From: an uncultured Pseudomonadota bacterium
GTDB lineage: Bacteria; Vulcanimicrobiota; Vulcanimicrobiia; Eremiobacterales; Eremiobacteraceae
NCBI GenBank assembly: GCA_963736005.1
Contig: CAVTNB010000001.1
Span: forward strand, 1,376,001-1,440,000
Length of the DNA stretch: 64,000 nucleotides
Reading direction: 5' to 3'
Below, piece after piece: positions 13,465-17,816 of the stretch. Within the stretch, counting starts at the first letter, position 1; each line of letters begins with the position of its first letter. Both the position numbers and the translations under genes were made by a program. The notes under the pieces were generated by a model, which saw only the letters and a program-made list of their open reading frames with translations, had not been told where the DNA came from and ran no database searches.

Positions 13465-13553
13465 CGCGCGAATAAATTCGCGCGACTACATCTCGGGCGC
13501 GAATAAATTCGCGCGACTACATCTCGGGCGCGAATAAATTCGCGCGACTACAT
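13465..13553 (-). repeat. Three tandem GTAG-type REP units (31-bp period) between sucC and sucD
   Basis: Unit GCGCGAATAAATTCGCGCGACTACATCTCGG on the plus strand; the ATGTAG of the gene-proximal copy is the last codon plus stop of sucC. Confidence 0.92.
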
Positions 13554-14696
13554 TTTGGCGATGGCGACTGCACGCGCGGCGCCGTCGTTCATTGTTTCGA
13601 CTGCCGCGATGCCGGCGGCTTCCAACACGGCTCGCCCTTCCTTTTCGTTCGTGCCAGTGAGCCGCACGACCAGTCGATCCTTTTTCCACTTGCCACCGTC
13701 CAGGGCGGCAATCAAACCACGTGCCACTTCGTCGCCACGCGTAATGCCGCCGAAAATGTTGATGAACAAAGCCTTCACTCGCGGATCGGAGGTCACGATA
13801 TCCACCGCGTTGCGAACGACATCGGCCTTTGCCCCGCCACCGATGTCGCAGAAGTCGGTCGCTTCCCCACCCGCAGCTCGCACCGCGTCCATCGTGCCCA
13901 TGACGAGTCCGGCGCCATTGCCGATCACGCCAATACTTTCGTTGCCTTTGCCGCTCAGGTACGCGTAGTTGAGATTTGTCTGCCGAGCGCGCTGTTCGAG
14001 CGCGTGGTCTGGCAGGTCGGTTCGCCACGCATCGAGTTCGGGGTGGCGAATCAAACCGTTATCGTCAATGTCGACCTTTGCATCCGAGGCGACTAGCTTC
14101 CCGTCTTTGGTGATGGCGAGCGGATTGATTTCGAGCAACATCGCGCCGACGCCAAAAAACAGCGCGTACAGCTTGCCGAGAATGCTGACGAATTGGTTTG
14201 TGATTACGGCAGGGATGCGGGCTTCTCGAGCAACGCGCCGGCCGATGAACGGCCAATACCCACCCGCTGGATTGATGCAGTACTTCGCAATCGCAGCTGG
14301 ATTCGTCGCGGCGACCTCCTCGATGTCCATGCCTCCCATGGCTGACGCGATGATAATGGGGCGCTTGCTCGCGCGATCGACGGTGATGGACAGATATAGC
14401 TCGCGCTCGATGTCCATGCGCTGCTCGATGAGGATGCGTTTGGCAACCTCGCCCTTGATAGTCATGCCGAGGATGGCTTGAGCTGGTTCGCGGACGTCGT
14501 CCGCGCTCGTGCAAAACTTGATTCCGCCTGCTTTGCCTCGGCCGCCCACGAGTACTTGCGCCTTCACGACCGAGGGCGCCGGGTTCTCACGCATGATCTG
14601 CACGGCTTCCTCTACCGAAGACGCAACGCGACCGCGCGGCACGGGAATGCCCGCTTTGGCAAATAGTTCTTTCCCTTGGTATTCAAGTAGACGCAT
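13548..14696 (-). CDS. sucC: Succinyl-CoA ligase beta subunit
   Basis: MRLLEYQGK, KAQVLVGGRGKAGG, EINPL, NGAGL, NIFGGI. Confidence 0.97.
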   Translation of the reverse strand: MRLLEYQGKELFAKAGIPVPRGRVASSVEEAVQIMRENPAPSVVKAQVLVGGRGKAGGIKFCTSADDVREPAQAILGMTIKGEVAKRILIEQRMDIERELYLSITVDRASKRPIIIASAMGGMDIEEVAATNPAAIAKYCINPAGGYWPFIGRRVAREARIPAVITNQFVSILGKLYALFFGVGAMLLEINPLAITKDGKLVASDAKVDIDDNGLIRHPELDAWRTDLPDHALEQRARQTNLNYAYLSGKGNESIGVIGNGAGLVMGTMDAVRAAGGEATDFCDIGGGAKADVVRNAVDIVTSDPRVKALFINIFGGITRGDEVARGLIAALDGGKWKKDRLVVRLTGTNEKEGRAVLEAAGIAAVETMNDGAARAVAIAKM

Positions 14697-14720
14697 GTCG
14701 TTCTCCGGTTGTGCGTGTGG

Positions 14721-14771
14721 GGGACCTAAAGGTCCGCTGCTACCATGGGCGACTTTACAGTCGCCCGCTAC
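14721..14771 (-). repeat. Two adjacent GTAG REP-like hairpins of different families
   Basis: Minus strand GTAGCGGGCGACTGTAAAGTCGCCCA then GTAGCAGCGGACCTTTAGGTCCC; relatives at 23553-23580, 12516-12540 and 38608-38631. Confidence 0.75.
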
Positions 14772-14787
14772 GTGTTCGTTGTTAGGG

Positions 14788-16017
14788 TCATTCCTTTTCG
14801 GCGGGGTCGCGAGTTGTGCGGGCACCGTTGCCGCTTCTGCGCGGAGCGCGTGGCGGTCGATCGTGGCCGGTCCGCTCATCCAGCCGACCAAGCAGCTCTC
14901 GAGCAATGACGATGCGCTGCACCTCGGATGTCCCTTCGTAGATCTCCGTGATCTTGGCATCGCGATAGTAGCGCTCGGCCGGGAACTCGGTTGTGTACCC
15001 GTAGCCGCCTAGAATCTGGACACACTCGTTTGCATGTTTGCGCGCCGCAGTTGAGGCAAAAAGCTTTGCCTTGGACGACGCATCGATTGAAGGTTTGCCG
15101 CGATCGCGGAGCCACGCCGCGCGATACAGCAAAAGTCGCGCCGCGTCGAGGTCAACGGCCATGTCGGCAATCTTGAACGAGACCGCCTGAAACGCTCCAA
15201 TAGGTCGACCGAATTGAAAGCGCTCGAGTGCATAGCGCTGCGATGTCTCGAGGCAAGCGGCGAGGATTCCCACCGCCTGCGCGGCGATCCCAAGCCGCCC
15301 TGCGCCCAAGTTGGCAAGCGCGATCTTGTAGCCCGCTCCCTCTTCTGCCAGCAGCCGCGCTGACGCGACCCGAGCGTCCGCGAGCACCAGATCGACCGTG
15401 TTCGACGAATGAATGCCCAACTTGTCGGCAGTGCGACCAACACTCAGGCCCACCGTCTTCTTGTCCACAAGAAACGCGGAGAGTCCCTTGGGCCCGTCAG
15501 CTCCCGTCCTGCCAAACACGATCAGCGCGGTAGCGTATCCGCCGTTTGTGACCCATTGCTTGGTACCGTTGAGCACATATTCGTTGCCGCGCTTTTCCGC
15601 TCGCGTCCGCAAACTCGACGCGTCCGAACCAGACTCGGCTTCCGTCAAAGCGAACGCACCTAACCACTTTCCCGCGCACATCGAAGGCAGGTAGGTGCGC
15701 TTGAGGTCAGCCGATGCAAATTCCTCGATGATGCGCGATGCAAGTCCTTGCACCGACACCGTCACGCCGACCCCCGCATCTGCTCGGCTCAACTCTTCGA
15801 TCGCCAGCACCGTGCTGACCGTGTCGAGCGCCGCGCCTCCATACTCGTCGGAAGTAAACATTCCCATGATCCCGAGGTCGCCGAGTTTGCGAAAGACTTC
15901 CAGTGGAAACTCGCGATCGCGATCCCACTTTGCAGCGTGCGGCGCGATTTCTGCCCTGGCGAAAGCAGCGACCATCTCGCGGACGGCCTTTTGATCGTTG
16001 GTGAGTTCAAAATTCAT
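14788..16017 (-). CDS. Acyl-CoA dehydrogenase (short-chain/butyryl-CoA type)
   Basis: MNFELT start overlapping the hbd stop (ATGA); FALTE..SGSD, VQILGGYG, IYEGTSEVQR. Confidence 0.93.
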   Translation of the reverse strand: MNFELTNDQKAVREMVAAFARAEIAPHAAKWDRDREFPLEVFRKLGDLGIMGMFTSDEYGGAALDTVSTVLAIEELSRADAGVGVTVSVQGLASRIIEEFASADLKRTYLPSMCAGKWLGAFALTEAESGSDASSLRTRAEKRGNEYVLNGTKQWVTNGGYATALIVFGRTGADGPKGLSAFLVDKKTVGLSVGRTADKLGIHSSNTVDLVLADARVASARLLAEEGAGYKIALANLGAGRLGIAAQAVGILAACLETSQRYALERFQFGRPIGAFQAVSFKIADMAVDLDAARLLLYRAAWLRDRGKPSIDASSKAKLFASTAARKHANECVQILGGYGYTTEFPAERYYRDAKITEIYEGTSEVQRIVIARELLGRLDERTGHDRPPRAPRRSGNGARTTRDPAEKE

Positions 16018-16856
16018 GAGTAGGTAAAGAACCCGCGCCCGGTCTTCTTGCCAAGGTATCCCGCGGCAACCATCTTGCGAAGCAGCGGGCACGGGCGATA
16101 CTTCGAATCGCCCAACCCGTCGTGCAAGACTTCCATGATGGCCAAGCACGTATCCAAACCGATAAAATCAGCCAACTCGAGAGGCCCCATCGGATGGTTC
16201 ATACCAAGTTTCATCACCGTGTCGATGGCTTCCGCGCTTGCGACGCCTTCCATGTACGCGAAACATGCTTCGTTCAGCATCGGCATGAGAATCCGGTTGC
16301 TCACAAAGCCAGGGTAGTCGTTGACTTCGACCGGTGTTTTATCGAGTTCTTTGACAAAACGCTTAGTGGCTTCGAAAGTGTGATCGGCGGTGGCGAGTCC
16401 GCGAATGACTTCGACCAGCTTCATGATCGGTACCGGGTTCATAAAATGCATGCCGATGACCCGATCGGCCCGCCGGGTCGCGGCCCCGAGAAGTGTAATC
16501 GAGATCGATGAGGTGTTGCTTGCCAGAATGGCGGCAGCCGGGAGCGCGGCATCGAGGTCTGCGAACAAGCGTTGTTTGAGGCCTGTGTCCTCGCTTGCAG
16601 CTTCGATCGCTATGTCGACCTCGATCCCTTTGGAAATTAGGAGCTGCGCACCGATGTGCGCTTCGATCGTGCGAGCTTGTGGCTCGCTGAGGCGTTTTTT
16701 CTCGAGCTGCCTCTCAAGAGTGCGCCCTATGGACTCTCGTCCACGCTCGATCGCTGCGGCGTCAATGTCGTTGAGCAGCACCGTATGGCCAGCCGCCGCG
16801 CAAACGTAAGCGATGCCGCTGCCCATCTGCCCGGCACCAATGACCAAAACGCGCAT
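16014..16856 (-). CDS. hbd: 3-hydroxybutyryl-CoA dehydrogenase
   Basis: GAGQMGSG, SNTSS, GMHFMNP, PGFVSNR, HPMGPLELAD. Confidence 0.93.
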   Translation of the reverse strand: MRVLVIGAGQMGSGIAYVCAAAGHTVLLNDIDAAAIERGRESIGRTLERQLEKKRLSEPQARTIEAHIGAQLLISKGIEVDIAIEAASEDTGLKQRLFADLDAALPAAAILASNTSSISITLLGAATRRADRVIGMHFMNPVPIMKLVEVIRGLATADHTFEATKRFVKELDKTPVEVNDYPGFVSNRILMPMLNEACFAYMEGVASAEAIDTVMKLGMNHPMGPLELADFIGLDTCLAIMEVLHDGLGDSKYRPCPLLRKMVAAGYLGKKTGRGFFTYS

Positions 16857-16898
16857 AAGATATCTTTTGTTCACGCAGGCACCGTGGTGGTCCCGCAC

Positions 16899-16930
16899 AA
16901 AAAAAGGCCGCCCCATTTGGGAGCGGCCTC
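16899..16930 (-). terminator. Intrinsic terminator
   Basis: GGCCGCTCC-CAAAT-GGGGCGGCC followed by T7 on the minus strand. Confidence 0.88.
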
Positions 16931-17069
16931 GTCAGCGGATGCTCGTCGATATTGCTGATTGACGCCTTGCTCGCGGCCATATTGAAAGGTTGCGAGCCGG
17001 TCATCCCGGCGGCGGCGCTCGCCGGATCTCCGCAGAACCGGCCACCTATGCGTCGACGGCAAACCGCCT
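16899..17069 (-). ncRNA. Candidate ~170-nt structured non-coding RNA (family not recognised)
   Basis: Upstream promoter; 5' end 17053-17067 pairs with 16935-16949; internal hairpins; terminator; no credible ORF. Confidence 0.6.
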
Positions 17070-17073
17070 TAGA

Positions 17074-17103
17074 AGAATAGCATCCGGCCGCTTGACCCTT
17101 CAA
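17074..17103 (-). promoter_or_regulatory. Sigma70-type promoter TTGAAG-N18-TATTCT with extended -10 TG
   Basis: Minus strand TTGAAG (17103-17098) and TGCTATTCT (17082-17074). Confidence 0.55.
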
Positions 17104-17198
17104 GGCAACGAGTGTTCGGCCACCCTTATGGTCTCGTCCCTAGCCGTGGAATTTTTGGAATTGACGGCAAGAATGAAGCCTCGGTCTCAGGTCTTGTC

Positions 17199-17816
17199 CT
17201 ACCTGGCGGCCCGAGTTTTAACAGTTACCGCCACGACCATGAGCGCAAAATAGGCAAGGGTGATGATCTCAGCCCGGGCGATAACGCGGCCGTTCCATGC
17301 CCCTTGCCGCTCGTCTCGAGGCAGCGGAGCAGAAAGCGGCACGATCCGCGCGACCGCTTGGCGATAATTCTCAAACTCGCCGCCGAAGGTTTGAGCGAGA
17401 TACGATTCTTCCAGCGGGATGATGGTCGCGTACACGCTCACGATCAAGACAGCTACAACGGCAAACATAACGAGCGACGTTGCGATCGGCACGTTGCCCG
17501 AGAATGCAAGCCAAAAACCAAGAGCGATGATCGCATTGCCAACGTAGAGTGGGTTGCGCACGAACGCGTAGGGTCCGGCAGTCACGAGTTTCGGGGCCGT
17601 GACGACGTCCGAGCGGGTCGTGACTCCCGAATATCCGACCGCCCAGATTCGGATAAGCTCGCCGAGACCAGCAACGGCAATACCCACGACCGCGCTCCGA
17701 AGCGAAGGCGATCCGAACAGCACGAGAATCAGCGCCACGGGAACGAGTAGCAGGCCTCTATTTTTGAAAACCCAGGTTTGCCATTCGCTGGGTGGCAGCG
17801 CGTTAAGCCGCGGCAC
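17199..17816 (-). CDS. Isoprenylcysteine carboxyl methyltransferase (ICMT/Ste14)-family membrane methyltransferase
   Basis: LVTAGPYAFVRNPLYVGN and EESYL motifs; several TM helices. Confidence 0.88.
   Translation of the reverse strand: MPRLNALPPSEWQTWVFKNRGLLLVPVALILVLFGSPSLRSAVVGIAVAGLGELIRIWAVGYSGVTTRSDVVTAPKLVTAGPYAFVRNPLYVGNAIIALGFWLAFSGNVPIATSLVMFAVVAVLIVSVYATIIPLEESYLAQTFGGEFENYRQAVARIVPLSAPLPRDERQGAWNGRVIARAEIITLAYFALMVVAVTVKTRAAR

Follow-up and report, generated by a model that had tools for sequence, protein, structure and literature searches.

Comparative sequence analysis lends good support to a real and new family of structured RNAs conserved across Candidatus Eremiobacteraceae, a family within Candidatus Eremiobacterota (WPS-2), an uncultured phylum for whose regulatory RNAs our literature search found no description. 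The element was originally predicted from a single locus in a 64,000-nucleotide stretch of DNA (hereafter the window, to which all plain coordinates refer), where it spans positions 17103-16899 of the minus strand and comprises a conserved promoter, a core of ~138 nt, and an intrinsic terminator (Table 1). All sequences quoted in that prediction lie on the minus strand where it had placed them. Its central proposal, a novel structured RNA equipped with both promoter and terminator, has stood up well: the promoter blocks are conserved across genera, a scanner calls the terminator, and no known RNA family matches the locus.

Table 1. Features of the RNA locus and its neighboring genes, in window coordinates.
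Feature	Position	Strand	Description
PEMT/ICMT-like methyltransferase gene	17199-17816	-	Upstream gene of the RNA
Conserved block 5′ of the -35 element	17104-17140	-	GGGAC ... CCGAACAC.CGTTG; from alignments across genera
Promoter (predicted)	17074-17103	-	-35 TTGAAG 17103-17098; 18-nt spacer; extended TG 17082-17081; -10 TATTCT 17079-17074
Structured core, 138 nt	16933-17070	-	Covariance models R1 (147.1 bits) and R2 (130 bits) at G000:C1:1392933-1393070
P1, 5′ strand	17053-17067	-	GCGG-UUU-GCCGUCGA; pairs with 16949-16935
P2a, 5′ strand	17037-17041	-	CCGGU; partner ACCGG 16997-17001
P2 internal loop, 5′ side	17027-17036	-	Invariant 10 nt, UCUGCGGAGA; 3′ side AUG 17002-17004
P2b hairpin	17005-17026	-	UCCGGCG 17026-17020 / CGCCGGG 17011-17005; loop AGCGCCGC 17012-17019
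P3 hairpin	16970-16996	-	CUCGC 16996-16992 / GCGAG 16974-16970; loop of variable length
J3/1, 20 nt	16950-16969	-	CAAGGCGUCAAUCAGCAAUA; GGCGU 16966-16962 is the candidate pseudoknot partner, followed by the AGR(R) block
P1, 3′ strand	16935-16949	-	UCGACG-A-GC-AU-CCGC; from covariation
Intrinsic terminator	16899-16930	-	Called at 16930-16904: 11-bp stem with 8 G-C pairs, 5-nt loop, then T7
hbd (3-hydroxyacyl-CoA dehydrogenase)	16014-16856	-	PF02737 and PF00725; ATG at 16856, 42 nt after the T-run; first downstream gene
ACAD (acyl-CoA dehydrogenase)	14788-16149		Follows hbd
sucC (succinyl-CoA-synthetase-beta-like, ATP-grasp CoA ligase)	13548-14960		Follows ACAD

Architecture and comparative support

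As modeled, the core is a three-way junction built from P1, from P2a and P2b with an asymmetric internal loop between them, and from P3. Folding of the single window sequence does not settle this structure, because its stability is only moderately unusual (minimum free energy of -82.5 kcal/mol, z of -2.65, 1 of 200 shuffles as good) and the minimum-energy fold pairs J1/2 with the P2b loop, leaving P2a and P2b unformed. It is the comparative data that, on the evidence of the aligned homologs, decide for the predicted P1, P2, and P3 helices put forward originally, which are the ones that covary.

The larger alignment contains 45 rows, including the divergent g5 and g9 sequences; one row (L147:930-1051) is spurious, leaving 44 genuine ones. 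In the full set of 45 rows 94.1% of cells are paired, compared with 77.5% in shuffles, compensatory changes on both sides occur at 25 of the 29 pairs, and the covariation score is 0.432 as against 0.151 in shuffles. None of 500 shuffles reaches any observed value, and the core thus offers the covariation-supported structured domain that characterizes riboswitch aptamers in general. Moving the partners by 1-3 columns as a control lowers pairing to 28-46%. A smaller set of 63 model-guided matches, 40 of them distinct, gives 95.3% pairing versus 85.8% in shuffles, with both-sided changes at 14 of 29 pairs. Both alignments were fitted to a covariance model and hence lean towards it; in a structure-blind MAFFT alignment of 19 sequences, the pairs of P2a, P2b, and P3 are standard in 15-19 of the 19 rows. 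Three alignment rows come from unpublished genomes (G013, G008, and G011, with loci L006, L014, and L159), and the public records L033 and L036 hold sequences identical to those of G013 and G008.

Support varies among the helices. The best supported is P1, in which all 12 pairs vary, 11 of them with both-sided changes, and whose sequence is wholly different in g3 (CCCCGUCCG/CGGACGGGG) and g4 (CCCGCCGG/CCGGCGGG) with its pairing preserved. Both-sided changes are likewise seen at 4 of 5 pairs in P2a (96.8% of cells paired), 6 of 7 in P2b (99.0%), and 4 of 5 in P3 (91.1%).

The overall pattern of conservation is aptamer-like, combining covarying helices with invariant bases in the internal loop and the junction. 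Both CTGCGGAGA and CUGCGGAGA occur in 44 of 44 genuine rows of alignment A5 and also in remodeled copies, which for the former are L157-L160. The 10-nt block UCUGCGGAGA, predicted to be unpaired in the covariation-supported structure, is the sole universally invariant element, and the domains that surround it are remodeled between genera. The main clades share an unchanging GCCGC in the P2b loop, for which g5 has a different sequence; P3, nearly invariant where present, is absent or replaced in the g4 clade, which has a longer P2a instead (read by eye); g9 carries an additional hairpin; and G005 no longer has P2b. This last copy (L157, G005:C25), located downstream of PEMT, keeps GGUCGA-UUCUGCGGAGA and the terminator before a thiolase gene, but where P2b and the P1 3′ strand would lie it has a stretch containing several AAGG(A/C) motifs. 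A K-turn reading of the internal loop was dropped because GAUGA, its 3′ side, gives way to AAGU or AUUU in g5.

A pseudoknot between the P2b loop and J3/1, also part of the original prediction, is plausible from sequence and survives in part. The pairing can form in most sequences, and in g5, as judged by eye, a single compensatory change preserves five pairs, with GCGCA/UGCGC in place of GCGCC/GGCGU. Five sequences (L009, L012, L098, L063, and L106) have no J3/1 partner or a poor one, and of the 38 distinct rows tested only 8 give duplex energies that outdo J3/1 shuffles at 0.05 or below. A second candidate pairing, of UCU(G) in the internal loop with AGR(R) in J3/1, was considered and is not established, its variation being one-sided only.

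Promoter, terminator, and coding potential

The promoter blocks CTTG and TGCTAT(T/C)(C/T)T are kept in homologs of all clades in alignments across genera, and the 18-nt spacer of the window promoter ends in TGC. With 8 of 12 consensus positions, this promoter falls below the threshold of a consensus scanner, which calls no site. The further conserved block 5′ of the -35 element (Table 1) is possibly a regulator site for the promoter of the RNA or operon, or else an UP-like element. Its pattern, GGGAC followed after ~15 nt by (C/T)CGAACA and after another 1-2 nt by CGT(T/A)G, is seen in the window and in L130, L147-L152, L160, and L016-L019.

Every homolog with 3′ sequence carries a terminator 2-11 nt after P1, with a stability of -14 to -20 kcal/mol and a tail of 6-9 U; in the window the linker between the P1 3′ strand and the terminator measures 4 nt. 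A strict scan of the 2.84-Mb genome of the organism (G000), which demanded a perfect stem of at least 7 pairs with at least 5 G-C pairs and a run of T6 or more, finds 24 canonical intrinsic terminators, that of the RNA among them, and the organism thus seems sparing in such signals. An ORF stop precedes most of the other 23 by 7-70 nt. For the RNA terminator the nearest upstream ORF stop is 273 nt away, which assigns this terminator to the RNA and not to PEMT.

A protein-coding reading of the locus was rejected. The overlapping ORFs of 63 and 87 aa match no Pfam family, and the homologs share no common frame: with frames aligned at the invariant motif, none stays open in more than 23 of the 44, and their lengths modulo 3 split 22/14/8.

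Distribution

On the searches described here, the element is restricted to Ca. Eremiobacteraceae, where it occupies the same locus in all 10 genera. Exact-motif matches fall in Candidatus Eremiobacterota (WPS-2, Vulcanimicrobiota), family Eremiobacteraceae. Of 61 related genomes searched by BLAST with a 216-nt stretch, 22 gave a match; the hits L020, L021, L022, and L024, short GC-rich matches with neither PEMT nor hbd nearby, were set aside as spurious. The covariance model R1, built from 8 sequences, matches all 17 loci from the motif scan of the genome collection and 27 of 80 metagenome loci from a looser motif scan. In a 151-genome sample of the phylum, R1 returns only family members and one 29.9-bit match (L131, in G124), which was rejected as spurious, lying inside a 433-aa ORF on the opposite strand.

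The second model, R2, gives one match each in 27 of 32 family genomes, with the exception of G003, in which an assembly break splits the copy so that L004 (G003:C88) and L023 (G003:C130) both end inside the RNA gene and no second copy is present. Five family genomes have no R2 match. The contig of one, G015, ends inside the PEMT gene; the other four, G009 (g7), G011 and G018 (g9), and G005 (g3), carry divergent or remodeled copies at the same place with UCUGCGGAGA and the terminator kept, and it is on this basis that the element is present in all 10 genera, the statement for g9 resting on G018 as well as G011. The RNA is a single-copy element in the genome of the window, as it is in each genome matched by R2. 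A partial match of 22.3 bits at G020:C22:50424-50452 covers model positions 41-69 only.

Genomic context

In 10 of 10 genera the RNA immediately precedes the first gene of a thiolase/hbd-ACAD-sucC operon and shares its orientation, a position consistent with a leader. The first gene is hbd in g1, g2, g5, g6, g7, g8, and g10, and thiolase in g3, g4, and g9, where the orders are RNA-thiolase-hbd-ACAD-sucC (g3), RNA-thiolase-hbd-ACAD (g9), and RNA-thiolase-ACAD-sucC (g4). On the other side, the PEMT gene is preceded by a GDP-mannose-dehydratase-like gene; in L006 a HEAT-repeat gene stands in place of PEMT, and the link between the RNA and hbd is kept.

Between T-run and start codon there are ~17-25 nt in g5, ~38-45 nt in g1, g2, and g3, and ~110 nt in g9, where the gap to thiolase is partly AT-rich, so that an independent promoter is possible in that genus. 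The original prediction had placed a separate promoter-like motif before hbd and had taken it to favor a stand-alone RNA. A consensus scan calls no promoter in window positions 16500-17500 or at three homologous loci, and the gap between terminator and ATG, only ~17-45 nt in most genera, holds no conserved -10/-35-like block; with no such promoter found, the argument falls away. The silence of the scanner before hbd is weak evidence, because the scanner misses the conserved promoter of the RNA as well.

Several smaller features of this region were observed. The longest hbd ORF (16014-16916) starts at an ATG at 16916 inside the terminator loop, and the real start is placed at 16856 by the conserved N-terminus MRVLVIGAGQMG and by homologs. 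Immediately after the T-run (16857-16898 on the minus strand of the window, and its counterparts in homologs) most homologs have GGRGG(A)C, in forms such as GGAGG, GGGGG, and GCGGG. The g3 clade has an extra hairpin that ends at the thiolase AUG and shows compensatory changes, as exemplified by GCAUCCUGCG...CGCGGAUGUC versus GCAUCCGGCG...CGCCGAUGUC.

Relation to known RNA families

None of 4227 Rfam models reaches its gathering threshold in the whole window or at six divergent homologous loci, and a permissive search of positions 16700-17350 at E up to 10 yields five matches, all at chance level. The best of these, RcsR1 (RF02552), scores 17.3 bits against a gathering threshold of 60 (E of 0.69); its alignment covers the terminator hairpin and U-tail only, leaving the two 5′ hairpins of the model unmatched, and membership in this sRNA family was rejected on the score. 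An identity with SRP RNA was likewise discarded, as the small SRP RNA of this genome lies elsewhere (72.3 bits, G000:C1:334937-335035, minus strand).

Functional interpretation

The reading to which we lean, while holding it only tentatively, is that of a family-specific terminated leader RNA through which the operon is read, its effector site being the invariant internal loop. The sigma-70-type conserved promoter, with its extended -10, would place the transcription start 2-4 nt 5′ of P1; the initial ~140 nt would fold into the three-way junction, with the intrinsic terminator directly after it; and most transcripts would end at that terminator as an RNA of ~170 nt. The thiolase/hbd-ACAD-sucC operon, beginning 17-110 nt further on, would be expressed by read-through only, since it has no recognizable promoter of its own. 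The folded core, and chiefly its UCUGCGGAGA loop, would serve as the surface on which an effector (a metabolite, a protein, or another RNA) sets the ratio of termination to read-through. We infer both the need for read-through and any regulation from sequence.

In favor of a leader are the covariation, the fixed position at the 5′ end of the operon despite the changing first gene, the short gaps, the aptamer-like conservation, and the rarity of terminators in the genome. Against it stand the strength of the terminator, the remodeling of the periphery between genera, a pattern more usual for sRNAs than for aptamers, and the outcome of a search for an antiterminator. The complementarity between terminator arms and core beats dinucleotide shuffles (at 0.05 or below) in only 5 of 44 homologs for the 5′ arm and 3 of 44 for the 3′ arm. 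J1/2 (GGCGG) and the P2b loop (GCCGCC), tried as an antiterminator, seem by eye to be complementary to the terminator arms, with duplex energies of -13 to -18 kcal/mol, but shuffled cores mostly match these values; the apparent fit of the two segments to the terminator arms is a chance product of GC-rich composition. A classical riboswitch expression platform, in which terminator and antiterminator exclude each other, is thus not demonstrated, because the arm complementarity does not rise above shuffles.

The element shares with attenuating riboswitches and leaders of the purine and SAM-I type a promoter-proximal domain closed by P1, covarying helices, invariant bases in loop and junction, a terminator a few nucleotides after P1, and a co-oriented metabolic operon directly downstream. 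It differs from them in having no Rfam match and no detectable antiterminator, in occurring as one copy per genome, and in the gain and loss of sub-domains between genera.

Nearly as likely as the terminated leader, and not exclusive of it, is a second possible reading, in which the ~170-nt RNA acts in trans as a stand-alone sRNA of the Hfq type, with UCUGCGGAGA as its seed on mRNA targets and its adjacency to the operon reflecting inherited synteny or co-regulation. The RNA has the outward form of an Hfq-dependent sRNA: a predicted promoter of its own that is conserved, a comparable length, and a strong Rho-independent terminator, apparently unconditional, with a tail of U6-9 in every homolog. 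The organism encodes Hfq (PF17209, 98.6 bits, G000:C3:154756-154947). The single copy per genome and the want of an antiterminator above chance fit this reading too, as does the restriction of universal invariance to one short stretch, predicted to be single-stranded, amid variable and remodeled structure. An sRNA would be harder to reconcile with a fixed place at the 5′ end of one operon, always co-oriented and close even when the first gene changes, and with an operon that has no recognized promoter. The proposed seed is also atypical, being purine-rich (GGAG) and set in the internal loop of a covarying three-way junction, where a CU-rich anti-Shine-Dalgarno stretch might be looked for. A scan of the organism's own genome found no conserved target: the exact complement of the 10-nt seed occurs at 7 sites on both strands, the gene's own antisense included, which is about the chance level (~5 expected, by estimate), and the sites inspected lie inside long ORFs.

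A metabolite riboswitch in the strict sense, in which a small pathway molecule such as a CoA thioester, CoA, or NAD(H) would bind in a pocket made by the P1-P2-P3 junction, the internal loop, and the pseudoknot and so set termination, appears unlikely. The covarying helices with their invariant loop and junction bases would suit an aptamer, the terminator follows directly after P1, the candidate pseudoknot is compensatory in g5, and the genes downstream are coherent (thiolase, 3-hydroxyacyl-CoA dehydrogenase, acyl-CoA dehydrogenase, and a succinyl-CoA-synthetase-like ligase). Set against these points, no alternative pairing exceeds chance, some genera do without the P2b apex or P3, five sequences have no pseudoknot partner, each genome has a single copy and a single operon, so that no regulon points to a ligand, and any ligand named is a pure guess. 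The more specific proposal, that the element founds a riboswitch class of its own, with a CoA thioester or other pathway intermediate as ligand, and gates read-through into the operon, is, if anything, more doubtful.

Very unlikely is a CsrA-binding RNA, whether a sponge or a CsrA-controlled leader, in which GCGGAGA of the internal loop and CAGG(G)AA of J3/1 would bind a CsrA dimer. The genome does encode CsrA (PF02599, 88.4 bits), a GGA lies within the invariant loop, and the J3/1 sequence is CAGGAUGG in some of the g5 copies and CAAGGAC in g9, both of which resemble what we take to be the CsrA consensus. Sponges of the CsrB/RsmZ type present many GGA motifs in loops and single strands, far above the 2-3 found here, and the g3 clade, like most of the g4 clade, has no GGA in J3/1.

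The two family assignments floated in the original prediction, a 6S-like RNA by its size and closing stem and a divergent relative of the SAM riboswitch clan by its loop-junction pseudoknot topology, are refuted to the extent that covariance models can judge and need hardly be entertained: the locus matches no 6S (RF00013) or SAM-clan model at E up to 10 (positions 16700-17350), nor does any SAM-clan model reach gathering on the window or at the six homologous loci. The SAM-clan models describe a four-way junction whose conserved bases contact SAM. A genuine and normal 6S RNA lies elsewhere in the genome (RF00013, 83.8 bits, G000:C1:1843467-1843652, plus strand), and 6S RNA is a rod with a central bubble, as opposed to the junction modeled here. 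The genes downstream, encoding 3HCDH, acyl-CoA dehydrogenase, and CoA ligase or thiolase, are unrelated to the sulfur, methionine, or SAM metabolism with which the SAM clan is associated.

Implications

To our knowledge there is no riboswitch for a CoA thioester or a related pathway ligand, and none was found in the literature, subscription journals aside. Should the RNA prove to be a leader, it would be an orphan riboswitch candidate in a pathway without a known riboswitch and would offer a handle on the control of fatty-acid or butyrate-type carbon flow in these bacteria; should it prove to be an sRNA, it would be the first conserved sRNA for Ca. Eremiobacteraceae. In either case, alignments A4 and A5 and models R1 and R2 make it a ready candidate for an Rfam seed.
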